Below, one piece after another: positions 33,686 through 56,696 of a stretch of DNA of 58,698 nt (positions are counted from its first letter, which is position 1; each line of letters starts with the position of its first letter). A model generated the notes under the pieces. The model did no database searches, was not told the origin of the DNA, and worked only from the letters and a program-made list of their open reading frames with translations. The DNA lies in the IMG/VR virus record IMGVR_UViG_3300029827_000002, positions 1 to 58,698 of that record. One strand, written 5' to 3'. Source of the stretch: a virus. Its lineage: Duplodnaviria > Caudoviricetes. The translations under genes and the position numbers were made by a program.

Positions 33686-33716
33686 AGTTTAAATCATCCT
33701 TTTTTATTTATTTTTT

Positions 33717-34055: not shown

Positions 34056-34073
34056 TGTTTTTATTATTCCTTT

Positions 34074-35964: not shown

Positions 35965-36236
35965 AATAATTTCCTCATTTCTTCAATAGATAAGTTCTCC
36001 TTTTTTCTTTCTACTTGTGCTTCTTTTGCTTTGCTAAATTGTTCTTTTAATTGATTTAATTCTTCTTGCAAATAACTTTTTTCAAGTTTTAATTGTTTAA
36101 TATTCTCAATCAATAATTCATTAGTAATTTTTAAATTTTCATTTTCTTTTGACATTGCAATATGATCAATTTGTAATTCTTCATATGTCATTTTTCTATA
36201 ATTTTCATTCATAATAATTTCCTCATTTCTTCAATA
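35741..36236. repeat. Tandem duplication of a ~250 bp unit
   Basis: 35741-35988 vs 35992-36236; the unit includes the last codons of pseB (SIEEMRKLL). Confidence 0.9.
35961..36212 (-). CDS. Coiled-coil protein, duplicate copy B
   Basis: Leucine-zipper-like; C-terminus LSIEEMRKLL shared with PseB. Confidence 0.65.
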   Translation of the reverse strand: MNENYRKMTYEELQIDHIAMSKENENLKITNELLIENIKQLKLEKSYLQEELNQLKEQFSKAKEAQVERKKENLSIEEMRKLL

Positions 36237-39734: not shown

Positions 39735-41228
39735 TTAAACCTCAGTTTTAATCATTTCCCCTGTAATTCCTTCATCTGCATTAATTTTGTCAACTTCTTC
39801 TTGTATTTTTTCATCTGTCCAATCTGGATGCTGTAATTTTACCTTCATAAAATTAGAAATAGCTTTTGCCTGATATAAATTTCTTATTACTTCAGATGTT
39901 TCTTTATTATCTGTCATGATTGAATCTTCTATTTCCAATGATATTGGTTGATTTTCATAATTTGAATATAATCCACTTGCTTTATCAATATTTTGGGCTT
40001 GTTGTAATAAACTTAAAATCGCAGGTTTGAAATATTTTTCTTTTTTTGATCTTGTTTTTTGAGACTTATTTTCTCTTATTTTTAAAGCGGTACCGCTTTG
40101 GGCATTTCCATATTCTCCTAAGCCGAATGTTTGCGGAGAATAACCACAATTTGAAATTATTTGCCACGTTAGCTCTGAACACGTTTTCATGTGTTCTTCA
40201 ACTCTAATATCAAATTGTACTTGTTCTATAGGTTTAACATTATTTTCAGACATTCTCCATTGGGTAAAATCCATTTTTACAAAAGACTTTTGAAATTTGC
40301 TAAAATTATTTATAAAGGTCGTTGTACCGTTCACATCTGATCTTGTCTTTTGTAGTAGTTCCTCATCAACAAATATTTGTGCCATTCCTAGTTCTATGTC
40401 ACGCATCCAACTAGTCCAAGCAAAATCTAATGAATCAAGTAAGGAAATATCGTCTGAATAATCATTGATTCCTAAAGGACTTCCTAAAACGAGTCTATTA
40501 GGTCGCATATTAGGTACATATACACACCCTAAACCATATACATTTTTATATTCAACTGGCTTTAAATTTAAATCTTCAGTTTCTTTAATACTATTAGGAT
40601 CAATTTCTTTGCCTACTTTTGTCGCTGTTCCAACGTTTAATTTATATTCGATTAAAAGAGAATTGCCACTTCTTCTTCTATTCTCAAATAATCTAAAGAC
40701 TTTCCCACTATCTGTCTTTTTAACTACTCTAAAAAACAAGATTTCCCATAGTCTACCTCTCCAAAAAGTAGGAATAAATTGCTTTGGATTCATTACATTA
40801 ATTAAAGGAACTCCTTCTAATTGTGCCTCTATGTCTAATTTTAATACACAACCTGAGATTGCTGCCGATATTTCCGCACTTTCTAATAAAATACTATTAA
40901 ATCCATTCTTTTCAATAATATCTTTTATTCTTTCCCCAGCAATTGTTTTTTGATCATATTTATAAATTGGACTTTCAGAAAACAATAAATCTGCCGAAGT
41001 GCTTGCGATATCACCAGCTAAAGGCATATGGACAATACCTTTTCTTTCTTCAGTTTCTAGTCTTGCCCAAAACTTTTCTTGAGCTGTCTCATTTCCCGAA
41101 GCTAATCTTGTATAAAATCTTAATAATTGTTCAGGATCTCCACTATACCAACTTGCCCATTCCTCATATTTTAAAAACCAATAGTCGCATTGATTAGGTG
41201 GAAAATTATCTTTTTCATTCAAAAACAT
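39735..41228 (-). CDS. Portal protein (SPP1/A118 type)
   Basis: MPLAGDIASTSADLLFSE, YVPN, LDSLD...S and GYSPQTFG...SGTA motifs. Confidence 0.92.
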   Translation of the reverse strand: MFLNEKDNFPPNQCDYWFLKYEEWASWYSGDPEQLLRFYTRLASGNETAQEKFWARLETEERKGIVHMPLAGDIASTSADLLFSESPIYKYDQKTIAGERIKDIIEKNGFNSILLESAEISAAISGCVLKLDIEAQLEGVPLINVMNPKQFIPTFWRGRLWEILFFRVVKKTDSGKVFRLFENRRRSGNSLLIEYKLNVGTATKVGKEIDPNSIKETEDLNLKPVEYKNVYGLGCVYVPNMRPNRLVLGSPLGINDYSDDISLLDSLDFAWTSWMRDIELGMAQIFVDEELLQKTRSDVNGTTTFINNFSKFQKSFVKMDFTQWRMSENNVKPIEQVQFDIRVEEHMKTCSELTWQIISNCGYSPQTFGLGEYGNAQSGTALKIRENKSQKTRSKKEKYFKPAILSLLQQAQNIDKASGLYSNYENQPISLEIEDSIMTDNKETSEVIRNLYQAKAISNFMKVKLQHPDWTDEKIQEEVDKINADEGITGEMIKTEV

Positions 41229-41663
41229 TTAATTCACTCCTTCTAAATTTTCAATAAATCTATCAATAATTTCTCCTACAGTAAACTTATTTTTATATAT
41301 TTTTTTATTTTTAACTACTTCTCCCTTTTTATAATTTTTATAATATACTTCTCTGACAATACATTTACGAGCATCTATCCAATTATTATAATTATCTATA
41401 TAATGTTCGGCTATTATTAAAATAGAATTTTTCACTTTGTTTAAATCAAAAATTAATCTTGTTAATGCTAATTCTTGTCCAATAGGCAATTTTGTTTCTT
41501 TGTATTTAATTTCTAATAATATATATGCTTTATTTTTATATTCTATTAATCCATCCATATCAGTTGGTGTAATCTTATTATAAACAAGATTTTCAAAAGT
41601 TATAATTTGTTGTTTTCTTCCAATATGATTAATTTTACCTCTATTATTTTCATGATTTAACAT
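41229..41663 (-). CDS. Putative PD-(D/E)XK-fold nuclease-like protein
   Basis: PTDMDG...LLEIKY...GQ..AL pattern. Confidence 0.55.
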   Translation of the reverse strand: MLNHENNRGKINHIGRKQQIITFENLVYNKITPTDMDGLIEYKNKAYILLEIKYKETKLPIGQELALTRLIFDLNKVKNSILIIAEHYIDNYNNWIDARKCIVREVYYKNYKKGEVVKNKKIYKNKFTVGEIIDRFIENLEGVN

Positions 41664-42708
41664 TTAAAGTACACCACCCATATTTTGAAAATATATTTAT
41701 AAATTTATTAGAATTATTTCCAAAATATATAAAACATTGTCCTTGTAAAGGTGAACATTTATTATTATTAGGCTGATAAAACTTAATACGTCCTTTTGGA
41801 AAACAAATAGCATTTGAATAATTTATAATTTTATGAAACCAGATAGTATCAGTTGCATTGTTTACAAGTAATATACATTGATTTATATTGTTTAATTCTT
41901 CAATAATTTTATCAATAAATTTATTTATTAAGTTTATTGAATATGGCGGATTAATCCATATATTTCCTTTCCATTTCTTTGTTAATCCATTATCTTTAAT
42001 TGTATATATTTTATTTGCTTTAACAATTTTATTTGCTTCAATTGAACTTGCTGGATCTAAATCTATATTATTCATTACTTCAATTACAGCTTTTATATAA
42101 ACTTCTGGCGTATACCATTCATTATCTCCAGAATTATTAACAATATGAGGTTTTTTAATATCTTGATATGCTTTATTTACTGTAATTTCTCCTTTTTTTA
42201 GTTTGTTTTTTGTCTCTTCATCTGCTTTTTCTTCTATATGTTTTACTTTGTTTAGCGTTCCTTTACTGACGTTAAATGCTTCACTTGCTTGTTTTTCGCT
42301 ATCAACATTCCCCAATGTTGGGGAATCATTGTTTAACTTTCTTGACGTTCTATTAGCTTTTGACTTATTTTCTAATCCTTTAATCTTTAATATATCCTGA
42401 AGTTTTAAAGCCAATAAACCTCTATCATAATTATTTAAATTTCTTCTACCTCTTTGATTATTTATCATCCATTCAATAACATCAATTCTATTATTAAAAC
42501 TCATATATTCAGTTTCATATTGCAAATTATTTTTTTCAGCTATTTTGTATCTATTATGACCGTCAATAATTATATTTTCACCAGACCAAATTTTTATTGA
42601 ATCTTGTATGCCATGATTTTTGCAATTTTCTTCTAACTGATTAAATTCTTCATCTGTTAATTTTGGTATTAATTTTTCAAATTCTTTATCAATTTTTAAT
42701 TCTTTCAT
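41650..42708 (-). CDS. ParB-like domain fused to phage DNA N6-adenine methyltransferase
   Basis: IIDGHNRY...NQRGRRNL; C-terminal NEWYTP, DLDPAS, INPPYS and GRIKF motifs. Confidence 0.9.
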   Translation of the reverse strand: MKELKIDKEFEKLIPKLTDEEFNQLEENCKNHGIQDSIKIWSGENIIIDGHNRYKIAEKNNLQYETEYMSFNNRIDVIEWMINNQRGRRNLNNYDRGLLALKLQDILKIKGLENKSKANRTSRKLNNDSPTLGNVDSEKQASEAFNVSKGTLNKVKHIEEKADEETKNKLKKGEITVNKAYQDIKKPHIVNNSGDNEWYTPEVYIKAVIEVMNNIDLDPASSIEANKIVKANKIYTIKDNGLTKKWKGNIWINPPYSINLINKFIDKIIEELNNINQCILLVNNATDTIWFHKIINYSNAICFPKGRIKFYQPNNNKCSPLQGQCFIYFGNNSNKFINIFSKYGWCTLNVKS

Positions 42709-42718: not shown

Positions 42719-44176
42719 TTAAATTCCTAAAATTTTATATCTACTTGTAGCCCAAGCTATAAGACTATCGGGTATATGGTCGTCAATCTTTGCAATCTGC
42801 CCTAGTTCTGGGTTTGCATAATGATATTTTTTCATTTTCTCTTGAGCTGTTTTATTAGTAATATTTAATTTATTTCTTTCTAATAAAAATCTTAATACAT
42901 TTATGCCAATACCTTTCCACTTATTAAAAGATACTGGAATAACTTTAGTTGGACATCTTAATTCCATAAAAGTTTTTTGTAATGTAATATTGCTGTCTTT
43001 AGGGTTACTATCACAATAGACGGCTATTACATTATATTTGATACATAATTCAGCTATTGCCTTACATCTTTCTTTTAATTCGACATATTCCCAATATTTA
43101 GTTATATTATTTCTGAAAATTTCTCTAGGGTCTTGAATTAAAGAAAAAGCTGTAAAACTATATCCCCAGTCAATTCCAGCCTCTGTAAATACTTTAGGCT
43201 CAAATATATCATTTCTACCTCTGTTATACGCTCTATCTATACTATCAAATTCAAAAATTGTTTCCCCTACTTTAGGTCTTTTTAGTAAATATTCAGCATC
43301 AACCATTGCTTTGGTACATTGTTTTATTTTTCTTTCAAATTCTGATAAAGTCCAAAAACCTCTCTTTCCAATAACTTCATTAATACACCAAGCATATAAT
43401 TTAGCTCCAATTTCATATCTATTATCGATTATTTCAGACATTAATCCAAAAGCATTATGTAAAGTGCTAGAAATTATTACATTATCAAGTATTCCATAAT
43501 TTGATTTCGGCTGTCCTAAAGCTCCCAAATATATCTTTTCTTCCATTTCATCAACTTCATCTAATCTTAATTTTTGAGGATGGGGCCCTCTTATTGATTT
43601 TGTAGAAGCTGCCAAAGCTTGAAATTGTGATCCATGAGTTGTTTTAAAACCTCTTCCAGCTACTTGACCATTAACTAAAAGTTTGTTTCTTAAATGAGCT
43701 ACCGTTGGCATATTCCATAATTCATTGGTATAGGCAACCGCTTTTATTGACTGTTCTAAGCTTCCCCCTAGTACAGTTGTCCAGCAATGAGGTTTGAAAA
43801 CACTTTCTAACCAACCAAGAATCGCTAAATCTCTTGTTTTACCTGATCCTCTCATTGCATACCATATGGAAAATGAATCTTGTTCTGAGTAAGCTCCCCA
43901 TAATGCATCTAATGGAGATTTATGATCATTCTTTACACAATATTCATTAGTACTTCGAGGATAAGGAAATTTATTATTTAATACTGTGGCACAATAAAGA
44001 GCCAACTGTTCCTTTGATCTTGGAGCTTTTCCAGCGAATGATTCATCTATATCAACTATATTTGAAAAGTTTGGTAATGCTTCTTGTCTATTATAAAGAG
44101 AATTAATCACAGCAAAAGAAAGAATATCACAATATTTTATTATTGTTTTTTTATTTCTCTTCTTTGTTTTCTGCAT
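42719..44176 (-). CDS. terL: Terminase large subunit
   Basis: Walker A MRGSGKT, Walker B LRLDEVD, nuclease GIDWG and DDHIPDS motifs. Confidence 0.9.
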   Translation of the reverse strand: MQKTKKRNKKTIIKYCDILSFAVINSLYNRQEALPNFSNIVDIDESFAGKAPRSKEQLALYCATVLNNKFPYPRSTNEYCVKNDHKSPLDALWGAYSEQDSFSIWYAMRGSGKTRDLAILGWLESVFKPHCWTTVLGGSLEQSIKAVAYTNELWNMPTVAHLRNKLLVNGQVAGRGFKTTHGSQFQALAASTKSIRGPHPQKLRLDEVDEMEEKIYLGALGQPKSNYGILDNVIISSTLHNAFGLMSEIIDNRYEIGAKLYAWCINEVIGKRGFWTLSEFERKIKQCTKAMVDAEYLLKRPKVGETIFEFDSIDRAYNRGRNDIFEPKVFTEAGIDWGYSFTAFSLIQDPREIFRNNITKYWEYVELKERCKAIAELCIKYNVIAVYCDSNPKDSNITLQKTFMELRCPTKVIPVSFNKWKGIGINVLRFLLERNKLNITNKTAQEKMKKYHYANPELGQIAKIDDHIPDSLIAWATSRYKILGI

Positions 44177-44759
44177 TTTTATCCTCTTCTTCCTTAATTT
44201 CTTTTTCTAATTGCTTATAGTCGTCATCATCAATTGCAGGATATAAAGCTTTGAAGGCATTTTGTATATGTTCATCTGTAATGTTAAGTTTAATTCTTCC
44301 CTTTTCAAATTCTTCAATGATTTCTTGATCAACTCTTTTCCATTTAGTAGGAAATCTATTACATAGAGCAAAAATTAAAGCGTTAACATTCCCTCTATGA
44401 AATTTTGTAATTTTTTTTTGTTTCTTTTTTCTTTTTATTACTTTTTCTTTACCATCATTATCAATTAATACATCTTCTTCTAATTCTGTTTGTACTTCAG
44501 TATGTTCAAAGCCTGTACTTTCTTTATATAATGCTTCTGTTAGTTTGATTTCTAATTGTTGTTTGCTGTTCTTTAGGACCTCTTTAAACTCTGTTTTTAA
44601 TGTAGAATATTTATAGAAAGTTGCTTCACTTACTCCCAACATTTTATAAATTTGCTGGTGCGAATAACCTTCATTAAGCCAAAATCTAATTTGATCTAAT
44701 TGAGGATAAATTATTGTATCATATGCATTTTTTCTTCCTGCTTTTTTGACTTTTGACAT
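44151..44759 (-). CDS. terS: Terminase small subunit
   Basis: N-terminal HTH (LGVSEATFYKY), ALIFALCNRFP..W; upstream of terL. Confidence 0.85.
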   Translation of the reverse strand: MSKVKKAGRKNAYDTIIYPQLDQIRFWLNEGYSHQQIYKMLGVSEATFYKYSTLKTEFKEVLKNSKQQLEIKLTEALYKESTGFEHTEVQTELEEDVLIDNDGKEKVIKRKKKQKKITKFHRGNVNALIFALCNRFPTKWKRVDQEIIEEFEKGRIKLNITDEHIQNAFKALYPAIDDDDYKQLEKEIKEEEDKNAENKEEK

Positions 44760-44763: not shown

Positions 44764-45630
44764 TCAACTCTTTTTAAATTTCTCGTTTAATATACATGGA
44801 ACAGCATTTTTCCACTTGATTTTATGATGTATTCTTTTTGAATCATTATTTATTATCATAGAAATTTTTACACATGATGGACAATACATTACAGTATAAA
44901 AACTTTTAACATATGTTCCTTGTTCTAAATATATAGTTGTCATTCCTCCTGATTGTTTTTGGGTTTGTATTTGTTCTAGTGCGATATGATTAAGCATTAC
45001 AAAAATTTTACCTTCTTGTCCTAATTTTACATAGGTTGTTGTATCTTCATTTACATTTCCTAAAAAACTAAACCTTCTGTCTACACTACATACAAAGCTA
45101 TTCATAGCTTTTCTTTTTAATCTTATAGCTGCTCCCATTGGGTTATTTGTTCCCCCAATATAATCCCCACCTTGAGCGAATGTAACGGTTAGAATATCTT
45201 TGTTATATTCAAGAAATTTAATCATTTCATCAATAATATTATCTAATATTGGAATTCTAATTTTTGTATGTTTGTAATCTAAATTCTTATTAAATCGATA
45301 ATTCATTGATTTATAATCATCATCAAGTTCCATAAAATATTTAAATCCTTTTTCTTTAGCGATATCAAAACAAATATTTCTTGCCGATACTACAGTCTTT
45401 CTATGGTTAAAATTATCTCCTTGATCAGTCTTTTTACATGCTTCTTTTTTATCAAACATTAAAACTTTTTCAGTTCCATATTTATCAAAATATTGATTCA
45501 CTGTTTCATCTTCATTGTCTATCAGAATAAACCATTTACCACTATAACCAAGATTATTTAACATATTAATCGTATGTATTTTATCAGCACGACCATGACT
45601 TAAAATAAAAACACAAAAATCTTTTCTCAA
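44764..45630 (-). CDS. GREB1/TAGT-like GT-A glycosyltransferase
   Basis: FILSHGRA, ARN, YFMELDDDY, RKAMNSF, NEDT, QTQ..SGGMT..Y and RIHH.I.W motifs. Confidence 0.8.
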   Translation of the reverse strand: MRKDFCVFILSHGRADKIHTINMLNNLGYSGKWFILIDNEDETVNQYFDKYGTEKVLMFDKKEACKKTDQGDNFNHRKTVVSARNICFDIAKEKGFKYFMELDDDYKSMNYRFNKNLDYKHTKIRIPILDNIIDEMIKFLEYNKDILTVTFAQGGDYIGGTNNPMGAAIRLKRKAMNSFVCSVDRRFSFLGNVNEDTTTYVKLGQEGKIFVMLNHIALEQIQTQKQSGGMTTIYLEQGTYVKSFYTVMYCPSCVKISMIINNDSKRIHHKIKWKNAVPCILNEKFKKS

Positions 45631-46484
45631 TTAAAATCATCCTCTCCAAATGGCCCTTCAACTTCATTATTATTTAATTCATCTTCTCTTAATTCATTTA
45701 TTTTTTTTGAAAAATCAACAAGACCGTTAGCGATAGCTTTTTCATAATCAATTATAATTAAAGCTAAATCTTCCATTAATTCTTGAGTCTCTTTATTTTG
45801 ATGGCAATAAAATTCTGCGATATTTTCATAATTGAAGGTTAAAAATCTATTTGCGGCAAGGGTTAAAAAATCTTTTAAATCTTGATCGATATTACTTTTA
45901 TTAATTTTATTAATTAATTCTTTTGTTCTATCAACATTAACTAATTCATTAATTGGTGGAGCTTCATCCATTTTAGGCGTATATTCTGGAGATGCAATTT
46001 TATCAGTATATCTATTTTCATCATTTTCATTACTACCAGATCCCGAAGAATCATTATTATTATTTCCAAGACTTTTGAATTCTTCTTCTAAATCTTTAAA
46101 TTCTTGATTATCGAATCCAGTTAAAAGAAAATCATCTTCTCCGAAATCTTTTAAAATTTCATAAAGCTTTTCATTATCCCATTCACCAGATATTTTATTG
46201 AGTGCTACATTTAAAGCTTTTTCTTTTGTTTCATCAAGACCAACAACAACACAATCAATATCGGTATAACCTAAATCATTTAATACTTTTACTCTTTGAT
46301 GACCTCCAATTATTCTATACTTATTATTTTCACAATTTTCATTGACGATAATCGGCTCAACATAACCAAATTCATCAATACTTTTCTTGATCTTTTGATA
46401 TTCTGGATCACTTTCTTGTAAATCTTTTCTTGGGTTATATTCAGCATTGATTAATTCGCTAATTGATAACTTTTTAATTTTCAA
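45627..46484 (-). CDS. ParB/Srx-domain protein with C-terminal helical domain
   Basis: AEYNPRK...SIDEFGYVEPIIVN...IIGGHQR; C-terminal FNYENIAEFY...ALIIIDYEKAIANG. Confidence 0.85.
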   Translation of the reverse strand: MKIKKLSISELINAEYNPRKDLQESDPEYQKIKKSIDEFGYVEPIIVNENCENNKYRIIGGHQRVKVLNDLGYTDIDCVVVGLDETKEKALNVALNKISGEWDNEKLYEILKDFGEDDFLLTGFDNQEFKDLEEEFKSLGNNNNDSSGSGSNENDENRYTDKIASPEYTPKMDEAPPINELVNVDRTKELINKINKSNIDQDLKDFLTLAANRFLTFNYENIAEFYCHQNKETQELMEDLALIIIDYEKAIANGLVDFSKKINELREDELNNNEVEGPFGEDDFN

Positions 46485-49497: not shown

Positions 49498-50964
49498 CTA
49501 TTCATTTAAATCAATTAATTCAAAATCAGATATTTCTTTACAAGTTAGTTTTCGATTATAGGTCAAAACTTCAAATTTATATTCTTTTTGATTCTCATGA
49601 TTTATTAATCCATTCATAGGTTGACAATAAGGCGAAAACCCTCTTGATCTATATGTATATTTAAATTTAGCTGATTTAATCCAATGAGGTATTACATTTA
49701 AAATATTTTCATTTATTAGTTCATTTAATGCAGCTTTTCCACCTAAAGGAATATATGGTGTTTGTCCGCTCATAGAAGCATAACCAAGATTTCTATGAAA
49801 TATTGTATATTCATTTTCATAAGTAAGATTTCCATTGCCAAATGTTATATCACCATCTAATTTCACTATTTTAAAATCTTTAATTTCAATTAATTCATTA
49901 TTATTATTTTCTTCTTTTTCTTCATTGGCATCTTTTAGAATTAAAGCAGTTAATTGATTTTTTACATATGTTCTACTTGTTGATTCGATCCTAGCTTCCT
50001 TTGTAACAATCTTAGTTGACATATTATCAATATCACTTATAGCATATTCAGGAAAACAGTTAACTCTATGTCCTCCTATTTCTTCAACGTCATAATAAAT
50101 TGCTAATTTATTAATTGTTACATTAACTACTTTATACCATCCTTCATTAATAGCCATGTCCTCATACTTATAAAGAACTTGACCAATTTGATATTTAGCA
50201 TTTTCTTTTTTAACTTCTTCAATTGATTCATTATTTTCATTATTATTTTCTTCTTCTTCAATTAATTTCATTCTTTCGTCATAACCTTTAGAAACTATTT
50301 CGATTCTTTCGTCATGATCTTTATCAAGTAAAACATTTATTTGATTATAAACATATGATTCATTTGTTGCCTTGATCTTAGCTTCCATTGTTACAATTCT
50401 TGTTGATCCGTTAAGTCGATCAATTTCACCTATACAATATTCAGGATAATTATTTTTTCTATTTCCGCCAATTTCTTCGACATCATAGAATATTCCAAAT
50501 TTATCAATTGTTATGTTTATAACTCGATACCATCCCGAATCATTCGCCATATCTCCACAATTGTAAAGATATTGACCTATTTTATATTTAGAAATTTCTT
50601 TTTTATCTTCTTCAACTTCTTTAACTTCTTCTTTTTTATCTTCAATTTTTTTAAATGCTTTTTCAATTTCATTTTCTCTTATATCTTGTTTGCTTCTCAA
50701 ATATCCATATTTAATTCTATCTTCAATATATTTCAAAGTATAACTGCCAAATTCTTCGTAGCCATTAAAGCTTGTTGCGGCTTTATCAGCTTCTATAATA
50801 CTATCTATTGATATTTGATCTTCCATTGAAAATGTTTTTTCATTTAAATCTTCATACCAAAATTCAGAATATCTCCAACTTTTACCTATTTTCCAAACAT
50901 AAATAATAGCAATGCCTTCTCTTAAAAGTTCTTGAATTTCTTTTGATAATTTTGATAATGTCAT
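49498..50964 (-). CDS. Multidomain early protein with internal duplication and C-terminal DarA_C-like domain
   Basis: Two KY.IGQ.LY...GWY.V...YDVEEIGG...PEY repeats; C-terminal YTYRSRGFSP..QP...LTYNRKLT..EI.DFEL. Confidence 0.7.
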   Translation of the reverse strand: MTLSKLSKEIQELLREGIAIIYVWKIGKSWRYSEFWYEDLNEKTFSMEDQISIDSIIEADKAATSFNGYEEFGSYTLKYIEDRIKYGYLRSKQDIRENEIEKAFKKIEDKKEEVKEVEEDKKEISKYKIGQYLYNCGDMANDSGWYRVINITIDKFGIFYDVEEIGGNRKNNYPEYCIGEIDRLNGSTRIVTMEAKIKATNESYVYNQINVLLDKDHDERIEIVSKGYDERMKLIEEEENNNENNESIEEVKKENAKYQIGQVLYKYEDMAINEGWYKVVNVTINKLAIYYDVEEIGGHRVNCFPEYAISDIDNMSTKIVTKEARIESTSRTYVKNQLTALILKDANEEKEENNNNELIEIKDFKIVKLDGDITFGNGNLTYENEYTIFHRNLGYASMSGQTPYIPLGGKAALNELINENILNVIPHWIKSAKFKYTYRSRGFSPYCQPMNGLINHENQKEYKFEVLTYNRKLTCKEISDFELIDLNE

Positions 50965-51011
50965 AATATATCTGCCTCCTTAAGGTTTTTTTTGTTTTTC
51001 TCTATGACTCT

Positions 51012-51040
51012 ATTATATTACATGGAATCTATTTTGTCAA
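51012..51040 (-). promoter_or_regulatory. Consensus sigma-A promoter, copy 3
   Basis: TTGACA-aaatagattccatgtaa-TATAAT. Confidence 0.9.
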
Positions 51041-51210: not shown

Positions 51211-51216
51211 GCCTCT

Positions 51217-51245
51217 ATTATATTACATTGATTCTATTTTGTCAA
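51217..51245 (-). promoter_or_regulatory. Consensus sigma-A promoter, copy 4
   Basis: TTGACA-aaatagaatcaatgtaa-TATAAT. Confidence 0.9.
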
Positions 51246-51353
51246 TAAGATTTATGATTTATGCAATTATATATAATTAATTTTACAATAGTTTTTATTC
51301 CATTATTATTGTAACTATGGTAGAATTATATTAAATGATTTTTGGAGGCTAAA

Positions 51354-51518
51354 ATGAAAAATAATAAAAAAGAAGCTCGAACTTATTTATTAACAAAAGA
51401 TATCATTGAAGCGATTGAAAAAGCTTCAAATATTAATAAGATCGGCGATAGTAAAAACACTATTGTAAAAAAATGTATTATATTTGGATTGAAAGAATTA
51501 TACGATATTCAAATATAA
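51354..51518 (+). CDS. Ribbon-helix-helix-like protein (54 aa)
   Basis: Manual translation EARTYLLTKDIIEAIEKAS...SKNTIVKKCIIFGLKEL; GGAGG RBS. Confidence 0.65.
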   Translation: MKNNKKEARTYLLTKDIIEAIEKASNINKIGDSKNTIVKKCIIFGLKELYDIQI

Positions 51519-51541
51519 AAATAAAGAAAGGATAAAATATA

Positions 51542-51958
51542 ATGAAAAATTTATTTAATGGCCTTAAAAGTTTAATTTTAAGACCAAAATTAGTTAAAAT
51601 AATATTTTTAGTTGTAATAATTGTATTTATGTATAACATTTATAATATTTTACAAACTGAAAAAAATCCAGCATATTATTTTTGTTTTTATCTTGCCATT
51701 CCTGCTTATTTATATATTCTAGGAATGATTAACCAAGAAAAAGAAGAAAAAATGTCAGTTAAAGAAAATTCTTTGCCTGCAGTTCAAGAAAATAATATTC
51801 CAGTTGATGAATTTAATGATCAACAAAATGACATAGATAAATTAGAAAAACGAATTATAAAAACCTCAAGAACTGAAGAAATAGAAACAATATATTTTAG
51901 AGGTGGACAGGCATATAGAAACAAAGAAACATATTACTTTAATAGGGAGGGAAATTAA
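51542..51958 (+). CDS. Membrane protein (two TM)
   Basis: Two hydrophobic segments followed by a soluble tail. Confidence 0.7.
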   Translation: MKNLFNGLKSLILRPKLVKIIFLVVIIVFMYNIYNILQTEKNPAYYFCFYLAIPAYLYILGMINQEKEEKMSVKENSLPAVQENNIPVDEFNDQQNDIDKLEKRIIKTSRTEEIETIYFRGGQAYRNKETYYFNREGN

Positions 51959-52198
51959 ATGTTATTTTCAAATGTAATAGAGAACTTAATTAATAGTTTA
52001 ACAGGGTCTATTTCACTATGTATTGCCGTTCTAGGCGTTGTGGCAATAGCATGGTACGTTATAAACTCAAAATTTAAATTTTTATCAGCAGTTCTAACAT
52101 TTTTGTTGATAGCGATTTTAAGCTATTTGGCTTTTAATCCAAATTTAATTCAAGAAATAGGTGGAAAATTATTTTTTATGATATATGAAGGGATCTGA
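51959..52198 (+). CDS. Small hydrophobic two-TM protein
   Basis: 79 aa, two TM helices, GGGAGGG RBS. Confidence 0.7.
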   Translation: MLFSNVIENLINSLTGSISLCIAVLGVVAIAWYVINSKFKFLSAVLTFLLIAILSYLAFNPNLIQEIGGKLFFMIYEGI

Positions 52199-52203
52199 TT
52201 AAA

Positions 52204-54033
52204 TTGAAAATTTTAAATAAAAAAAATAAGCCTAAAAAAAAATTAAGCACTATTATAATTAAATTCTTTGTTAAATACCTAATGGTAGCTCTAAAATTTA
52301 TATTTAGAGCTACCATTAAAGGTTTTACCTCGGATCAATGTATACTATTTAAAAATAGAAAGAAGATTAAAATTATAAACTTTATATCCCTAAGTATTAT
52401 TTTAATTTTATCATATTTTAATATAGCATGGGTTAAATTAATCTTTTTTTTCACTTTAAAAGGATTTATTTTAATGTTGCATAATTCTAAGCAAAATATT
52501 AAAACGCTTAAAATTAAGCAAAAATATAAGAGATTATCGAATGAATTTTTTGATAACAAATTAGAGGTTGTTTATTTTGATAATGAAAAAATAACAATAA
52601 TATCAAATGAATTAACTATTGAGGATATTATTAAGTCTAAAAGTAAGTTTGAATTATTCTTTAATAGAAAGATATCTTTTATAAAAAATCAACAAAAGAA
52701 TCTTAGGTATATTGATCTATATTTTTCAAAAGAAACAAAATTTAAGGATTGTTATCCTTTTGAAGAATATATAAATAAAATAGATGAAAAAGAAATAAAA
52801 AATAAATCAATTCCAGCAGTTATTGGAGTTGATGAAAAAGAAAACACTGTAATAATTGACTTTGCAAAAGTAAAAAATTTGTTTATAGCTGGTGAACCCG
52901 GTGGAGGAAAATCCGTTTTAACAAATGTCATAATACAATCGTTAATGATCTTAAACAATAATATTATGTTTATCATGGTCGATCTAAAAGAAGGAGTAGA
53001 GTTAAGCGATTATGATAATTTTAGAAATACTATAGTTGTCAGTAATACAAAAGAGCTATGCAGCATAATAAATAAAATAAATGAAATCATGATCGATAGA
53101 TTACAAAGAATTAGAAAAATGGACAACTGCAAAAATTATTTTGACTATAATAATAAAAAAAATACCGAAAACATGTCGGAAATTTTTCTGATAATTGATG
53201 AATTAGCCGAAATAAAGTTAAATTCATCCAGTAAGGGGCGATCAGAAGAGGAGACACAACTATTACAAATAGGTCAAAAAGCACGAGCCGCCGGGATATA
53301 TATCGTCGGAGCTACACAAAGACCGAGTGGAGAACAAATAAATACAGATTTTAGAGCTATATTTCAAAAGGCGATATCTTTCTGTATTTCAACAAAAGAA
53401 ACCCAGCGAATGACTAAAGTTCCAGACACTGAAAAATTAAAGCCTGGTGAATTTAAAACTAATATCTGGAATCAAACTTCAAGAATTTATAAAGCTTTTT
53501 TAGTAGATTCCAAACATAATAAAATTTATTATGATTTAAAACATGTTCTAAAAGATGAAAAAATACTCATAAATATACTGGAAAAAAAGAAAACTAAACA
53601 CTATAATTTCTTCCAAAGAATAGTTAACAAGTTTAACAAAGGTTATGACAAAAAGTTAGTACAAGCCTTTGATTGGTACAATTATTTAAAAACTGTTCCT
53701 AGCTCAGTAAAAATGCAGATTTCAGAGATTAAAAAATTAGTACAAAATGATAATAATTCCATAGAAAATCCTCAAATTCAACATGGGGATAACTACTTTT
53801 TACTTTTAAAATTTTTGCTGGAAAATAAACAGGAAAATAATTTGATTCCAGCAAGCAATAAAATAATAAAATCTTTGAAATTATCCGAAAGAAAAAAGAA
53901 AGAATTATTAACAAAAGCACTCGAAGAAAATTATATTAAAAAAAGAGGAAAAACAAGATTTGAGATAAATGATTGTGAAAAGTGGAATGATATTAAAGAA
54001 TCTATTAAAACAAAACCTACCAAACCCAACTAA
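52204..54033 (+). CDS. FtsK/SpoIIIE-family DNA translocase (TcpA/TraB-like)
   Basis: N-terminal TMs; AGEPGGGKS, VDLKEGVEL, LIIDELAE and ARAAGI..VGATQRPS motifs; C-terminal wHTH-like region. Confidence 0.9.
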   Translation: MKILNKKNKPKKKLSTIIIKFFVKYLMVALKFIFRATIKGFTSDQCILFKNRKKIKIINFISLSIILILSYFNIAWVKLIFFFTLKGFILMLHNSKQNIKTLKIKQKYKRLSNEFFDNKLEVVYFDNEKITIISNELTIEDIIKSKSKFELFFNRKISFIKNQQKNLRYIDLYFSKETKFKDCYPFEEYINKIDEKEIKNKSIPAVIGVDEKENTVIIDFAKVKNLFIAGEPGGGKSVLTNVIIQSLMILNNNIMFIMVDLKEGVELSDYDNFRNTIVVSNTKELCSIINKINEIMIDRLQRIRKMDNCKNYFDYNNKKNTENMSEIFLIIDELAEIKLNSSSKGRSEEETQLLQIGQKARAAGIYIVGATQRPSGEQINTDFRAIFQKAISFCISTKETQRMTKVPDTEKLKPGEFKTNIWNQTSRIYKAFLVDSKHNKIYYDLKHVLKDEKILINILEKKKTKHYNFFQRIVNKFNKGYDKKLVQAFDWYNYLKTVPSSVKMQISEIKKLVQNDNNSIENPQIQHGDNYFLLLKFLLENKQENNLIPASNKIIKSLKLSERKKKELLTKALEENYIKKRGKTRFEINDCEKWNDIKESIKTKPTKPN

Positions 54034-54037
54034 TTTA

Positions 54038-54082
54038 AAATTGATGTTATCTTTTTAACTCTGAGGATAACATCAATTTTTT
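54038..54082 (+). terminator. Intrinsic terminator after the FtsK-like gene
   Basis: AAAATTGATGTTATC...GATAACATCAATTTTT. Confidence 0.75.
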
Positions 54083-54088: not shown

Positions 54089-54580
54089 GTTACATGCCAG
54101 TTACATGATGCAATAAATTCCTTTTAATTGAAAAAAGTATTTCCATTTATATAATAATCTAGCTGTTACCTTACAATTTATAGAAGGTAACACTAACATT
54201 TTCATAAGTTAGATAAATTCAAGCTTAAAAAGCCTATTATATATATATATATTACTGTTACTTTTTTAAATATTATAAGGTAACACAAACTAGAATAGTC
54301 ATAATCATATTTTCATTGATTTTGTTACCTTGTAACCCAAAATAAATAATGCTTTTCACATGGGGACACTTCCAAATATTTCTAAATAAGTCTATATATA
54401 AGTCTATAACTTAAATACAATTTTTGTTTATATCAAATTATATACTATTCTATATATAGTTATATGCATCTTTTTTTTGGGTTACAAGGTAACACGCTAT
54501 TCAACACTAGTCTATCACTGTATTGTAGCTGTTACCAATAAAGGTAACACAAAGGTAACAGCAATTCAAAAAGGTAACAG
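54089..54580. repeat. Putative replication origin: GTAAC/GTTAC iterons flanking an AT-rich core
   Basis: About 14 GTTAC/GTAAC copies (often AAGGTAACA); 20-bp inverted repeat at 54323-54342/54475-54494; upstream of the helicase. Confidence 0.75.
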
Positions 54581-54682: not shown

Positions 54683-54943
54683 ATGAATGGAAAATATTTT
54701 GATTATTTGTTAAGTTTAAAAGGTTTGAAAAGGAAAAATGTAGCACAAAAATTAGGAATAGCCCAAACAACTTTAAACAAAAAAATAAAAGGTGATATAA
54801 GAATAACACTTGAAGAAATAATATCTATTATGAAATTACTTAATATGTCTTTTGACGAAATATTTATAAAATGCAATAATAATTCAACCAATATGGAGAC
54901 AAGAGGTGGAGTTAATGAAAACTTCCATAGTTCAAAATTATGA
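54683..54943 (+). CDS. Cro/XRE-like HTH protein
   Basis: KGLKRKNVAQKLGIAQTTLNKKIKG...ITLEEI...L....DEIF. Confidence 0.85.
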   Translation: MNGKYFDYLLSLKGLKRKNVAQKLGIAQTTLNKKIKGDIRITLEEIISIMKLLNMSFDEIFIKCNNNSTNMETRGGVNENFHSSKL

Positions 54944-56696
54944 AGAAAAAATGTATGTTAAAACTGTAATATATGCTAAAAATTCAGAAACTTATAGCAT
55001 ATCAAATTTTATAATGGAAGCCGAAGAAATAATACAATCAAATGATTCAATCGAATTACATATAAAATTTAAAAGAAAAAAATTACTCAATGATACTAAT
55101 GAACAAATTTTAATATTTACAAGTGATGATTTTCAAGATACAAAAAAATTTCGCAAAAAAATGAATAGCCAAAACATGGAATATATGTTTACAGGAAATG
55201 ATGCTGATCTAGAATATATAAAATCTAAAATTGTTTTAGGATGTGAAATAAATAAAATAGGACTCAATTATATTGGATTGGTTAAAAATAAAGATCAATG
55301 GCAATATATTGATAAAAAAGGAAATAATCAATTTATAACTTTAGACAATAATATTTTAAATTCTAATTTTGATTTGGATGAATTACCCACTGAAGATGAA
55401 TTAAAAGAAATTGCTAAAGGTCTATTTAATTTTAATGATAACAATATAGTATATCCCTCTTTATGCTCAGCAGTAAATTGCATTTTAAATGAAAGATTAT
55501 TTAATCTAAAAATTAAAATACCTATATTAAATATGACTGGTGAGAGTGGATCAGGTAAAAGCACGACATTTGAAACAATTATATCTAATATATGTCATTG
55601 CGAAAAGCCAGAAGTAGCAGCTAATATTAAGGAATTTGCGGCTGTTAGGCTATTATCTTCAAGTAATATAATTCCTTTTACAATCGAAGAATACAAAGAA
55701 TATAAATTAAATAGTCATAGAAGAGATTTAATTTCGGCTCTTGTTCGATCTGTTTACGACAAGCATAATACAAGGCGTGGGAAAATGGATCAGTCATTAA
55801 ATGATTATAATTTAATTGCACCAATGATAATTGTTGGTGAATCTTCATTTGACGAGACAGCAATCAAAGAAAGAACTATTGTTATTATGTTTTCTAAAAA
55901 CAATTTGAAAGAAGAATACAATAAATCAATGACATTATTAAAAAACAACTCAGATATACTTTATAAATTAGGAAACTTAATATTAAAAGAAGTAATAAAC
56001 GTTGAAGATAAAACCATCACTGAAATATATAAAAATTATATAAATTTCAATGATGATTTTCCCGACAGAATAAAATCTAACGTATCAATATCAATGATAT
56101 CTTATCATATTTTACATAAAATTTTTAGTAAAATTTGTAACATGAAACCTGAAAAAGAAGTTTTTGAAATAATAAAAACTTCTCAAAAAGAATTTAATTT
56201 AAATGATGCTCCAATAATCTCAGTTGTAGAAAATACTTTTGAAATTATTTCAAATATGATTGAAGAACAAATATTAAAAGAAAGGTTTGATTATGTATTA
56301 AAAGATCAAACAATATGTTTAAGACTTCCAATAGTTTACAATAAAATAACAAAATATATAAAAGAATATAATATTCAATCTGAAGTATATAACAAAAAAA
56401 GTTCATTTGCTAGTCAAGTAGAAAGAAGTCAATATTTTATAAGCAAAAATACAGCAATAAGAGCCGAATGGAATAATAAAACACCATCATCTTGTAAGAA
56501 GTGTTATGTTTTTGATCTTGAAAAAATAGCTGCATCAATTGATTTTTGTTTATGTCAATCTAATGAAGATATAATTAATGAAGAAAATAAAAATAAAACC
56601 CCTTATTTATTCGATAAGGACAAATTTTCTTTAGAAGGAATTAAAAATGATTTACCAATGTTAGATGATTTACCATTGCCGCCTAAAATAAAATAA
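54906..56696 (+). CDS. Replicative helicase/initiator (DUF927/Cch-like P-loop ATPase)
   Basis: TGESGSGKST, FTIEEY, RRGK and IIVGE...AIKER motifs; probable start ATG 54915. Confidence 0.8.
   Translation: MELMKTSIVQNYEEKMYVKTVIYAKNSETYSISNFIMEAEEIIQSNDSIELHIKFKRKKLLNDTNEQILIFTSDDFQDTKKFRKKMNSQNMEYMFTGNDADLEYIKSKIVLGCEINKIGLNYIGLVKNKDQWQYIDKKGNNQFITLDNNILNSNFDLDELPTEDELKEIAKGLFNFNDNNIVYPSLCSAVNCILNERLFNLKIKIPILNMTGESGSGKSTTFETIISNICHCEKPEVAANIKEFAAVRLLSSSNIIPFTIEEYKEYKLNSHRRDLISALVRSVYDKHNTRRGKMDQSLNDYNLIAPMIIVGESSFDETAIKERTIVIMFSKNNLKEEYNKSMTLLKNNSDILYKLGNLILKEVINVEDKTITEIYKNYINFNDDFPDRIKSNVSISMISYHILHKIFSKICNMKPEKEVFEIIKTSQKEFNLNDAPIISVVENTFEIISNMIEEQILKERFDYVLKDQTICLRLPIVYNKITKYIKEYNIQSEVYNKKSSFASQVERSQYFISKNTAIRAEWNNKTPSSCKKCYVFDLEKIAASIDFCLCQSNEDIINEENKNKTPYLFDKDKFSLEGIKNDLPMLDDLPLPPKIK

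Follow-up and report, generated by a model that had tools for sequence, protein, structure and literature searches.

The locus lies in a 58,698-bp virus record, the whole of which was analysed and is called here the window, and consists of a tight plus-strand operon of four genes (51342/51354-54033) with intergenic gaps of 23, 0 and 5 nt. A promoter-like site on the plus strand (TTTACA-16-TATTAT, 51282..51309), found in a consensus scan, agrees at 10 of 12 positions and is a pattern match only, the region holding 33 such sites when 33.6 are expected in shuffles. The operon is closed by an intrinsic-terminator-like hairpin (54037..54080, plus strand), which has an 18-bp stem, an 8-nt loop and a T-run; terminator-like sites number 2 in the region, with 0.8 expected. 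The operon, with its own promoter-like site and terminator, is placed between two other transcription units, and the separate plus-strand operon with its own terminator that an earlier note on this DNA had described is confirmed, with the ORFs in place.

The first gene (51342..51518, plus strand) encodes a small basic protein of 58 aa from a TTG at 51342 or of 54 aa from an ATG at 51354, the latter being the better start because GGAGG is found at 51344-51348. Homologues are encoded upstream of the ATPase gene in eight related loci (L002, L006, L013, L010, L011, L020, L025 and L015). The protein matches no Pfam (E<=0.01), PHROG or NCBIfam model, and its best PDB profile match (E 0.22) is to unrelated proteins. 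A strand-helix-helix pattern can be read by eye in the sequence and is the sole point for a ribbon-helix-helix (RHH) fold. The protein is proposed to be an RHH-like regulator or a DNA-binding accessory factor.

The second gene (51542..51958, plus strand) encodes a 138-aa membrane protein and the third (51959..52198, plus strand) a 79-aa two-TM hairpin protein, both recognised as ORFs and by hydropathy. The N-terminal half of the 138-aa protein is hydrophobic and its C-terminal tail acidic, with a conserved ETIYF+G-like motif at the very end, and hydropathy windows give one TM segment above threshold. A second hydrophobic stretch, at about residues 45-65, is read by eye. Its homologues are 90-98% identical in L002, L004, L006, L008 and L009, 76% in L013, 62-63% in L010 and L011 and 41% in L015, and the distant locus L037 encodes a 120-aa two-TM protein with 30% identity (E 4e-8). 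The 79-aa protein has TM segments at 17-35 and 41-59 in hydropathy windows, is encoded immediately 5' of the ATPase gene and is its most constant partner; P61 and G68 are invariant in the alignment of 9 loci, and in L037 its position is occupied by an 82-aa two-TM ORF of undetectable sequence similarity. A TrbC/VirB2 Pfam match of the 79-aa protein is weak (E 0.005, below the cut-off) and is a lead only. Neither protein is similar to TcpC/D/E, SpdA/B, KilB or pELF-like proteins (all E > 0.05). The two small TM proteins of the earlier note are therefore present, one with two TM windows and the other with one above threshold and one by eye.

The ATPase and its place among FtsK-type motors

The fourth gene (52204..54033, plus strand, TTG start) encodes a 609-aa FtsK/SpoIIIE-superfamily ATPase, which matches PF01580 at residues 200-375 (73.5 bits, cut-off 24, E 2.2e-20) and phrog_1358 (E 1.2e-44). 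TM-like segments are found in hydropathy windows at 16-34 and 65-92, with TM helices within 9-107, and are followed by an alpha/beta linker (121-190), the motor (~195-446, DNA 52786-53541) and a 163-aa tail past the motor, which contains a winged helix (~530-590, DNA 53791-53973). Residues G230, E231, G235, K236 and S237, D332 and E333, and T371, Q372, R373 and P374 are invariant in 26 aligned family sequences; we take them to be the Walker A, Walker B and TQRPS motifs. The AlphaFold2 model (pLDDT 77.5) has three long N-terminal helices, the motor and a helix-helix-helix-strand-strand unit at 530-588. When the tail is folded alone (pLDDT 76), only winged-helix DNA binders match it (MarR, ArsR, FadR and TubR), and these matches are weak (E 0.016-0.09, probability 0.72-0.99). 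The motor, as predicted from sequence and model, is anchored in the membrane through the protein's own N-terminal helices and retains all motifs of ATP binding and hydrolysis, so the earlier description of a membrane-anchored FtsK/SpoIIIE ATPase with a C-terminal wHTH-like region holds. Winged-helix C-terminal domains let FtsK, SpoIIIE and TraB choose their DNA.

In the tree, all 26 family sequences fall into a single clade (SH-aLRT 100, stem 1.3) separate from the group of E. coli, Bacillus and other cellular FtsK proteins, TcpA and TcpB pair together outside the family, and the neighbouring deeper forks are weak (SH-aLRT 74-82). In the PDB profile search FtsK scores 95 bits, TcpA 84 and EccC/EssC 39, 30 and 29, and Foldseek with the model gives 1.1e-19 for FtsK (6t8g) and 1.3e-19 for TcpA (6o1x). 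The family motor profile gives 129-131 bits for low-GC FtsK/SpoIIIE proteins, 128 for the FtsK-like protein of phage phiNIT1 and 100 for B. velezensis FtsK (FtsK range 94-131), 85 for an E. faecium plasmid protein (L032), 83 for TcpA and 24 for pIJ101 Tra. By score and predicted fold the ATPase is as close to FtsK as to TcpA, with EccC/EssC farther and Streptomyces TraB very far. Judged from these comparisons, it belongs to an undescribed branch of the known FtsK motor superfamily, a distinct clade whose members come from metagenomes only.

Membership in three established families was rejected. The ATPase is not a type VII EssC/EccC protein (one motor only; TIGR03924/03925 33 and 31 bits, cut-offs 509 and 347), and no WXG100-like gene was noticed; clustering with EssC, named beforehand as an outcome that would speak against the proposal, is not seen, EccC/EssC scoring far below FtsK and TcpA (39, 30 and 29 bits, compared with 95 and 84; Foldseek 4e-13, compared with 1e-19). 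It is not a member of the TraB family (NF041214 34-34.6 bits, cut-off 800; pIJ101 Tra 24 bits). The nearest ESM-Atlas clusters include a 'putative plasmid transfer protein TraB' (0.95), which is a lead only. The resemblance to TraB-type transfer that had been put forward stands for the architecture, that is, the single anchored motor, the winged-helix tail, the small membrane proteins and the lack of relaxase and VirB4, and fails for the protein family (NF041214 34/800). Finally, it is not the cellular FtsK equivalog (NF007615 57.3 bits, cut-off 1566) and branches outside the cellular FtsK clade; FtsK_gamma (PF09397) has no match in the whole ATPase or, at E<=1, in 13 C-terminal tails, and the FtsK_alpha and 4TM Pfam domains have none in the ATPase.

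These results bear on a less likely role, the chief rival of the reading preferred below, that of a SpoIIIE-like segregation pump, in which a septum-located motor would read the genome by its winged helix and pump it into the daughter cell or forespore. The motor profile is highest on low-GC FtsK/SpoIIIE (129-131 bits) and reaches 128 on a Bacillus phage protein, and the ATPase follows the FtsK/SpoIIIE plan of a TM anchor, a motor and then a winged helix that reads DNA at the C-terminus. However, the missing FtsK_gamma and FtsK_alpha matches and the equivalog score (57 vs 1566 bits) argue against it, as do the many relatives of 430-470 aa, L037 included, that are without the winged helix that would give direction.

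Distribution of the family and repeats near the module

The family comprises ~35 clusters at 90% identity and ~17 full-length representatives at 50%, with a larger shell of tail-less relatives. It always adjoins replication genes, on phages or plasmid-like contigs, its neighbours being D5_N/DUF5906 primase-helicases, DUF927 helicases, Rep3, DnaB, resolvases or an integrase. Phage contigs with the family are those of the window group, L003, which carries a tail spike and an integrase, and L037, which lies in a Clostridiales MAG; the contig of L016 has Rep3, TnpB and MT-A70, and no virion genes are seen in its available part. On these contigs, mobile elements carry the family, which is not confined to phages.

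The ATPase is always co-encoded with an ~80-aa two-TM hairpin and usually with a 120-160-aa two-TM protein and the small basic protein, and the membrane partners are kept over ATPase identities of 39-97%, even in L037, whose ATPase is without a winged helix. We know of no extra small membrane proteins as a feature of SpoIIIE or FtsK, and of no dedicated ones that a pure SpoIIIE-type septal pump needs; the conservation of the partners therefore counts for transfer of DNA between cells and against segregation. The module is present in every close relative with the region available, while the flanking cassettes are swapped, so it behaves as a core function and not as a variable accessory.

This constancy bears on a quite unlikely role, exclusion or defence, in which a membrane complex would intercept competing phage or plasmid DNA and block or expel it, protecting the infected cell or carrier. 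The self-contained operon, with its own promoter and terminator between two transcription units, would suit such cargo, the PHROGs class of phage FtsK-like proteins is 'moron, auxiliary metabolic gene and host takeover', an integrase adjoins the ATPase gene in L003, and FtsK-domain proteins occur in defence systems (PADLOC SspH 66 bits, mad8 58 bits, at domain level). These PADLOC matches, however, cover the ATPase domain only, and the partners of those systems are absent; the module is kept in all close relatives while the flanks vary, unlike typical defence cargo, and plasmid-like contigs also carry the family, next to replication genes.

Short repeats of the kind that the translocase recognises in TraB-type transfer, as mentioned in the earlier note, were sought around the gene. 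Nine of the 10 GGTAACA sites of the window fall at 54164-54579, just downstream of the ATPase gene, in a cluster of AGGTAACA (x9). The cluster is absent in L002 and L004 despite a 94-96% identical ATPase with the same tail, and recurs only with the cassette of an XRE and a 596-aa protein, in L006. Its occurrence thus follows that of the replication cassette, not that of the ATPase, which excludes a clt-like site, and for AGGTAACA the parallel with TraB does not hold. Local repeats at or just past the 3' end of the ATPase gene are found in 2 of 17 loci only (L003 and L016), and no clt-like repeat set co-varying with the ATPase is found among the loci compared. A TTAGCAA array at 842-1277 is a candidate repeat site.

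Carrier phage and possible roles of the module

The window is the complete genome of a 58.7-kb siphovirus-like phage (CheckV completeness 100%), and a PHROGs scan finds portal, major head, scaffold, tape measure and small terminase, which bears out the virion-encoding genome of the earlier note. An ORF at 42719-44176 (485 aa) has the canonical position and size of a large terminase; it matches phrog_675 weakly (E 0.023) and no PDB profile, its nearest ESM-Atlas clusters are large terminases (0.98, a lead only), and its assignment as the large terminase is weakly supported. The claim that the phage already has a terminase is accordingly upheld for a packaging set elsewhere in the genome, the large subunit being weakly supported.

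It is very improbable that the ATPase, instead of being a membrane transporter, drives packaging itself or helps in replication or decatenation. The faint large-terminase signal would allow it, and viruses that contain a membrane do use ATPases of the FtsK/HerA type to package their DNA. A32-like and PRD1-type ATPases are also among the low-ranking BFVD matches (E 1e-7 to 1e-5), and the gene always adjoins replication genes. Against it, the small terminase, the portal and the 485-aa ORF are present, the ATPase is membrane-anchored, its gene belongs to the early arm and is well separated from the head genes, and members of the family are also found on contigs whose available part shows no virion genes.

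The host is probably a low-GC member of the Bacillota, judging from the A118/SPP1-type portal, the Amidase_3 endolysin and the Clostridiales MAG of L037. The named matches of the portal are to a Clostridiales MAG (53%), Bacillota (48%) and Geomicrobium (45%), and no phage record matches at the DNA level. A 96%-identical relative is binned in an 'Ignavibacteria' MAG, and binning of phage contigs is unreliable. A Bacillota host would favour the segregation pump, and this shaky assignment counts against it. No integrase or ParA-type ATPase is detected in the window by Pfam and PHROGs scans, and a pump into daughter cells or forespores would give an element with neither a way to secure its inheritance or its entrapment in spores. 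Two ParB_N proteins of the window are grouped with DNA-modification genes (TAGT, Dam), an arrangement noted on the side of segregation. A review of Bacillus phages also reports FtsK/SpoIIIE homologues with a suggested sporulation link (PMC4113786).

No relaxase, VirB4 or other T4SS family is found in 67 ORFs against PHROGs or 60 ORFs against Pfam, the scans taking in ORFs of at least 90 aa outside the module, in agreement with the earlier note, which saw no relaxase or VirB4. In the same scans the window has no VirB6-like protein or dedicated wall hydrolase, and no relaxase or RCR-initiator gene or T4SS is found in the window or in the scanned flanks of related loci. These absences weigh on an unlikely role for the ATPase, that of a coupling protein for piracy of other elements' transfer machinery. 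Small RHH-like basic proteins are known as relaxosome accessory factors, a role that the first protein of the operon would suit, and the size, TM segments, motor layout, sequence and fold of the ATPase are at the TcpA level. PMC5357655 reports TcpA proteins on elements that encode no pore of their own. But no relaxase or RCR-initiator is adjacent, the neighbouring replication proteins are of helicase or primase types, the DNA-reading winged helix is not a TcpA feature (TcpA tail 78 aa), and a pirate would not need two dedicated membrane partners.

The preferred reading, to which we give roughly one chance in three, is that the operon is a minimal capsid-independent DNA-transfer module. The machine would be small and membrane-bound, with a hexameric FtsK-type motor for double-stranded DNA at its centre; in it, the small basic protein would regulate the operon or mark the DNA, the two membrane proteins would form or gate a membrane passage, and the motor would thread the element's own double-stranded genome through this passage into the adjoining cell, without a capsid. 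Such a route would be minimal conjugation as in Streptomyces TraB, pCW3 TcpA and enterococcal pELF TraC/TraD/TraG, here in the service of a tailed phage and of plasmid-like relatives from low-GC Bacillota. More doubtful is a further-reaching version, in which a three-protein pump (the TM-anchored FtsK-type motor, the 80-aa hairpin and the 120-160-aa two-TM protein) would be common to a complete tailed phage and plasmid-like elements of uncultured low-GC Bacillota and would offer them a capsid-free second cell-to-cell route, a virus-carried, TraB-like double-stranded-DNA conjugation outside actinomycetes.

Transfer is favoured by the layout of the ATPase, with TM 16-92, motor 195-446 and a 163-aa tail against TM 48-97 and motor 199-449 in TcpA and a 147-aa tail in pIJ101 Tra, and by a likeness to TcpA that equals that to FtsK (84 vs 95 bits; Foldseek 1.3e-19 vs 1.1e-19). 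The residence of the family on mobile elements and the constancy of the module in close relatives also speak for it. According to PMC5357655, Firmicute mobilizable elements and small plasmids often carry FtsK-related TcpA coupling proteins, which normally adjoin an RCR-type relaxase; PMC13492992 has pELF2 conjugation in Enterococcus requiring a minimal FtsK-type motor and membrane proteins, and PMC3357382 describes a non-essential 'DNA translocation operon' in Bacillus phage 0305phi8-36. Against transfer stand the absence of relaxase, VirB4-like, VirB6-like and wall hydrolase genes in the window and the higher family motor profile scores of low-GC cellular FtsK (~130 bits) and the phiNIT1 protein (128) than of TcpA (83), together with the TraB score (34/800 bits), the weak deep forks, the lack of co-travelling clt-like repeats and the dissimilar small proteins. 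In the literature searched, no demonstration was found that such a module can transfer a tailed phage independently of the capsid.

If capsid-free movement of phage DNA is true, the boundary between transduction and conjugation would be blurred, with a bearing on phage persistence and spread in sediments and digesters; if loading into daughter cells or spores is true, a concrete mechanism would be given for the long-suspected role of phage FtsK/SpoIIIE proteins. The family is well defined and small enough for direct biochemistry.

Comparison with known systems

TcpA of C. perfringens pCW3 (PDB 6O1W-6O1Z) shares with the ATPase two N-terminal TM helices and a single motor (199-449 vs 195-446), similarity of sequence and fold (84 bits, Foldseek 1.3e-19, TM-score 0.65 on target) and a low-GC Bacillota setting, and the pCW3 annotation has the small membrane proteins TcpD and TcpE nearby. 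It differs in its 78-aa tail without a winged helix and in its dissimilar small membrane proteins, and pCW3 has the relaxase TcpM, TcpB as a second FtsK-domain protein, a large ATP-binding protein, a wall hydrolase and other Tcp genes, none of which is seen here. Streptomyces TraB and pIJ101 Tra combine one FtsK-type motor with a C-terminal DNA-binding tail (147 vs 163 aa here), pIJ101 encodes the small membrane proteins SpdA, SpdB and KilB alongside Tra, and TraB transfer requires no relaxase or T4SS. They differ by minimal sequence similarity (NF041214 34/800; Tra 24 bits), by clt-like repeats, of which no co-varying set is seen here, and by mycelial actinomycete hosts, whereas the host here is probably of the Bacillota. 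Cellular FtsK/SpoIIIE proteins give the best-scoring structures (95 bits; low-GC FtsK ~130) and share the TQRPS and Walker motifs and the order of TM, motor and winged helix, but identity is 28-35% over the motor only, the family is a separate clade on a long stem without FtsK_alpha, FtsK_gamma or 4TM, and the ATPase here is carried by phages or plasmids together with small membrane partners of its own.

According to PMC13492992, TraD-TraC-TraG of the E. faecium linear plasmid pELF2 is likewise an FtsK-type motor with membrane proteins and no canonical T4SS or recognised relaxase, but TraD lacks a TM segment and relies for its anchoring on TraC, a second ATPase. The E. faecium plasmid of L032 has neighbour gene sizes that match the orf1-orf8 table of pELF2 in that paper, and its 458-aa FtsK-domain protein has no TM segment; no TraC-like or rhomboid-like TraG protein is found in the module. 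For phage 0305phi8-36, PMC3357382 proposes a non-essential translocation operon with membrane proteins, as here, but one that begins with a relaxase and has a VirD4/TraG-like ATPase.

Bacillus phages of the gamma-like and SPO1-like groups and phiNIT1 are Bacillota tailed phages with an FtsK-type or coupling-type ATPase of uncharacterised role, and 189 of the 285 phage records matched by tblastn with the ATPase are of Bacillus phages, with at most 40% query cover and 30-38% identity, in the motor only. The orf724 protein of phiNIT1 (128 bits in the common motor) differs by having no TM segment. FtsK-type motors of mobile elements are known in three guises, namely Streptomyces TraB, the TcpA-type coupling proteins of Firmicutes and the uncharacterised FtsK/SpoIIIE-like genes of Bacillus phages. 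The family described here combines traits of all three, with a TcpA-like anchor and motor position, a TraB/FtsK-like tail predicted to read DNA and residence in a tailed phage, and adds to them a conserved pair of small membrane partners.

The FtsK operon and its phage

The first operon of the plus-strand arm encodes a membrane-anchored FtsK-type motor with a winged-helix tail, which is co-inherited with two small membrane proteins in phages and in plasmid-like elements, the latter being judged from partial contig sequence. The motor would pump the double-stranded DNA of its own element across the membrane, and the favoured reading, held at a probability of about 0.35, is that this DNA passes to a neighbouring cell free of any capsid.

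The 58,698-bp IMG/VR virus record is complete according to CheckV, has a G+C content of about 25% and carries most of its genes on the minus strand. PHROGs identify a siphovirus-type set, with tape measure (15070-18222), major head (21575-22576), portal (39735-41228), small terminase (44151-44759) and a scaffold gene. The plus-strand arm begins near 51.3 kb, reaches the end of the window and continues through its first 0.7 kb; genes of both ends adjoin in relatives (contig L004), indicating a circular or permuted map.

The operon follows a promoter-like site (51282-51309) and contains, on the plus strand, a small basic ORF (51342/51354-51518), whose likelier start is the ATG at 51354 with GGAGG at 51344-51348, a 138-aa ORF (51542-51958), a 79-aa ORF (51959-52198) and the 609-aa ATPase ORF (52204-54033), separated by gaps of 23, 0 and 5 nt and closed by a terminator with an 18-bp stem (54037-54080). 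These ORFs, the terminator and the PF01580 domain confirm the observation of the earlier note, which described an operon with its own terminator, an FtsK-type ATPase and small membrane proteins. The ribbon-helix-helix assignment of the small basic protein found no match by sequence in Pfam, NCBIfam, PHROGs or a PDB profile search. An inverted repeat over the promoter, TTACAATA-N16-TATTGTAA, was rejected as an operator because it is exact in the window only; its left arm deviates in the five close relatives and its spacing in the L002 contig.

A 30-nt element, with 0 copies expected by chance, occurs three times (1891-1920, 51011-51040 and 51216-51245) and includes a perfect minus-strand promoter (TTGACA-17-TATAAT); two copies are in tandem, 205 bp apart, and face a leftward operon divergent from the FtsK operon. 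A minus-strand gene at 49498-50964 encodes a polyvalent-type protein with LPD15 at its N-terminus and DarA_C at its C-terminus, probably an injected anti-restriction protein. Inspection of its translation by eye shows two internal repeats, each about 100 aa long, and its middle part varies among close relatives (488 aa in the window, 511-645 aa elsewhere). The minus-strand ORF at the large-terminase position (42719-44176) is very divergent, reaching phrog_675 at E 0.023 only, with no Pfam match at 1e-4 and no PDB sequence match; its ESM-Atlas neighbours are large terminases.

Within the virion-gene arm, 26482-37159 holds a gene run of the sugar-nucleotide/nonulosonic-acid biosynthesis type (Pfam Polysacc_synt_2, DegT aminotransferase, CTP_transf_3, GNAT, PIG-L deacetylase, formyltransferase C-domain, GT29 sialyltransferase-like, IspD and short-chain dehydrogenase), which may serve glycosylation of the virion or of the host surface. 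DNA-modification genes are found at 41650-42708 and 44764-46484: one encodes a fusion of a ParB-like domain with a Dam methylase, and another, for a TET-associated glycosyltransferase (TAGT), adjoins a ParB_N gene. Because of this fusion and this neighbour, the 'ParB' genes look linked to modification and not to partition; no ParA is seen in the window.

The ATPase and its relatives

The ATPase matches PF01580 at 73.5 bits (cut-off 24) and the phrog_1358 'FtsK/SpoIIIE-like protein' family at E 1.2e-44. Its scores with the NCBIfam equivalogs are 57 bits for FtsK (cut-off 1566), 34 for TraB (cut-off 800) and, for two EccC models, 33 and 31 (cut-offs 509 and 347). The alignment-based AlphaFold2 model (mean pLDDT 77.5) has three long N-terminal helices at 9-107, which overlap hydrophobic windows at 16-34 and 65-92, followed by an alpha/beta unit (121-190), the motor (about 200-430), helices of poor model quality and, at 530-588, a helix-helix-helix-strand-strand unit. 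Modelled alone (pLDDT 76), the tail has weak matches, all to winged-helix DNA binders (E 0.016-0.09), and Pfam finds no FtsK_gamma in it. The helices and the weak fold matches bear out a membrane-anchored ATPase with a C-terminal winged-helix-like region, as had been proposed. Walker A, Walker B and a TQRPS motif are invariant across 26 aligned relatives, so the motor is, judging by its sequence, apparently active.

In Foldseek searches of the PDB, the FtsK motor (6t8g, 1.1e-19) and TcpA, the coupling protein of pCW3 (6o1x, 1.3e-19), are level, ahead of EccC/EssC (4e-13 to 1e-9) and then HerA (about 1e-7). The ATPase could also act as a TcpA-type coupling protein and pirate a resident T4SS, which is considered unlikely.

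A word-indexed search returned 35 clusters of the family (P0001-P0035), which score 303-1255 bits with identities of 36-97% and come without exception from metagenomes or MAGs; below them come one partial protein at 207 bits and then cellular FtsK proteins at up to 96 bits, matched in the motor only. An exhaustive profile search of 1.84 billion representatives gave 27,230 proteins at E<=1e-3, of which 540 reach E<=1e-30. The full profile is matched by about 17 of the representatives; after these come many proteins of 430-470 aa whose match spans profile positions of about 5-460, that is, anchor and motor with no winged-helix tail. The ten family representatives looked up are all metagenome proteins with no name. 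The window has no DNA-level match among 50,697 phage records, and protein searches of phages and plasmids gave motor-only matches with coverage of 50% or less.

Reference proteins were scored against a motor-domain profile made from the family. Low-GC cellular FtsK proteins reach 129-131 bits and orf724 of Bacillus phage phiNIT1 128, followed by FtsK of B. velezensis (100) and E. coli (94), FtsK-type proteins of an E. faecium and a B. velezensis plasmid (85 each), TcpA (83), a mycobacterial plasmid protein (80), a Streptomyces EccC-like protein (62), TcpB (26) and the TraB-type Tra of pIJ101 (24). The higher scores to true FtsK/SpoIIIE speak for the main rival reading, a SpoIIIE-like pump that would drive the DNA across a division or sporulation septum. 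The absence of integrase and ParA from the window points the same way, as does an old suggestion for the FtsK/SpoIIIE genes of Bacillus phages (a passage of PMC4113786); this pump is held to be possible, though rather doubtful.

A quick maximum-likelihood tree was built from 42 motor domains after removal of the 161-aa fragment P0036. It unites the 26 family rows in a single clade with SH-aLRT 100 and a long stem (1.3). The tree does not settle the placement of this clade relative to FtsK, TcpA and EccC-like proteins, with forks at 74-82 and long-branch warnings, and the branches of Tra, TcpB, the EccC-like protein and B. velezensis p3 are unreliable. The interpretation of the earlier note is thus partly supported: the family does not cluster with EssC, the outcome named there as contrary to a transfer or segregation module, and forms a clade of its own, while membership in the TraB family is unsupported by the equivalog and Tra scores.

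Membrane partners, neighbours and repeat arrays

Scans with the family alignment returned 2 viral, 2 genome-collection and 21 metagenome loci, L007 being the same contig as L002. BLASTP finds all three small genes upstream of the ATPase in L002/L007, L004, L006, L008, L009 and L013, whose ATPases show 88-96% identity. All three also precede it in L010 and L011 (ATPase about 61%, small genes 45%, 62-63% and 77% identical); by BLASTP, L015 (42%) keeps the 138-aa and 79-aa homologues, and L020 and L025 that of the small basic protein. In nine alignable loci the gene directly upstream of the ATPase encodes a two-TM protein of 70-81 aa. L037, a contig of 58,047 bp binned in a Clostridiales MAG, has a portal 53% identical to that of the window and encodes a tail-less ATPase of 430 aa (motor 39% identical) with an 82-aa two-TM ORF upstream; near a DUF927 helicase it also encodes a two-TM protein of 120 aa that shares 30% identity with the 138-aa protein (E 4e-8). 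The partner in the nine loci and the L037 set indicate a constant core of three membrane proteins, often supplemented by the winged helix and the small basic protein. The small proteins match none of TcpC/D/E, TcpM, SpdA/B, KilB, pELF-like ORFs and the Bacillus 'replication-relaxation' protein at E<=0.05; among 92 window ORFs compared with this set, the sole match at E<=0.01 joins 20 residues of XRE and TcpE and is taken as chance.

Neighbours of the family's genes are D5_N/DUF5906 primase-helicases (L010, L026), DUF927 helicases (L002, L037), Rep3 (L016), DnaB and primase-like proteins (L018, L022, L023), resolvases (L022, L025) and an integrase adjoining a tail-spike gene (L003). The replication genes place the family in early or replication regions of phages and of contigs whose available part looks plasmid-like; help with packaging or replication is very improbable as its role. 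No relaxase, VirB4, VirB6 or wall-hydrolase families are seen around these genes in the loci scanned, nor in the window (67 ORFs scanned with PHROGs, 60 with Pfam), in agreement with the earlier reading that relaxase and VirB4 are missing. Membership in a defence system was rejected, the PADLOC matches being confined to the ATPase domain, and a function in exclusion or defence is judged quite improbable; the leftover probability goes to an unforeseen explanation.

Capsid-free passage to a neighbouring cell is favoured because anchor and motor have a TcpA-like layout, dedicated membrane partners are kept even when the DNA-reading tail is lacking, the family is not confined to phages, and minimal FtsK-type conjugation sets have an experimental precedent in Firmicutes (a passage of PMC13492992), besides Streptomyces TraB.

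G+C is 25-31% in all loci. A member of the Bacillota is the probable host, given an A118/SPP1-type portal with named matches in the Clostridiales MAG, Bacillota and Geomicrobium, and an Amidase_3 endolysin. MAG labels on family and phage contigs conflict (Ignavibacteria, Bacteroidales, Paceibacterota, Methanogenium, Clostridiales), and a 96%-identical relative is binned in an 'Ignavibacteria' MAG.

A AGGTAACA/TGTTACCT repeat cluster lies at 54164-54579, past the operon terminator and before the XRE gene; nine of the ten GGTAACA sites of the window fall in it, and ten sites were reached in 0 of 100 shuffles. As a target of the ATPase like the clt repeats of TraB, the AGGTAACA cluster was rejected, since it tracks the XRE and 596-aa replication cassette and not the ATPase. 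It recurs in L006 only, with the same XRE and 596-aa P-loop cassette, and is absent in L002 and L004, where ATPase and tail are 94-96% identical and the cassette is a DUF927 helicase. L010, L011 and L012 have three distinct repeat sets, each beside its own primase-helicase gene, and similar ATPase tails. As the repeats follow the replication cassettes, such arrays appear to be replication or operator iterons, and the 54164-54579 cluster probably represents origin or operator iterons of the XRE and 596-aa cassette.

The cassette at 54683-56696, XRE plus the 596-aa P-loop protein (phrog_26824) as in L006, is exchanged for 7919-10546 in L002 and 9964-12594 in L004, in phages otherwise 90-100% alike. 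In L002, L004 and L008 two small ORFs accompany a protein of 645 aa (with DUF927 shown in the L002 copy); L009 has a 647-aa protein in place of the 645-aa one.

Local repeats at or after the ATPase gene 3' end occur in two of 17 loci, share no pattern and were found in no other of the 17. L003, a temperate-looking contig with tail spike and integrase, has the 13-mer GTTATGACCTTAG three times in tandem spacing, its core once inverted, in the 3' part of the gene (7433-7584); in L016, three tandem copies of a 24-bp repeat lie 200 bp past the gene. At 842-1277, within a convergent gap of about 560 bp between the plus and minus arms, about 19 TTAGCAA-like heptads are counted in both orientations, of which a search gives 15 with at most one mismatch, further CTAGCAA variants being read by eye. 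This array is kept in L004, L006, L008 and L009 irrespective of the replication cassette, and is a candidate centromere or origin, or a sequence that the winged helix or small basic protein may bind.

Relation to known systems

FtsK/SpoIIIE-like genes are common in phages (285 phage records matched, 189 of them Bacillus phages), a passage of PMC3357382 describes a 'DNA translocation operon' in a phage, and TcpA-type proteins occur on small elements (a passage of PMC5357655), so the kind of system is already known. A 70.5-kb linear 'plasmid' of Bacillus velezensis (L033) encodes a 385-aa FtsK-domain protein with a 64-aa ORF upstream, a gene annotated 'replication-relaxation family protein' after it and, close by, a serine recombinase. 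Such an FtsK and relaxase-like pairing has been described for gamma-like Bacillus phages, whereas the module of the window has no relaxase-like partner. The main texts of open-access papers and preprints yielded no description of such a module. New in this ATPase family are a clade that is separate by its motor sequences, the combination of a TcpA-like anchor with a TraB/FtsK-like tail, and the conserved pair of small membrane partners.
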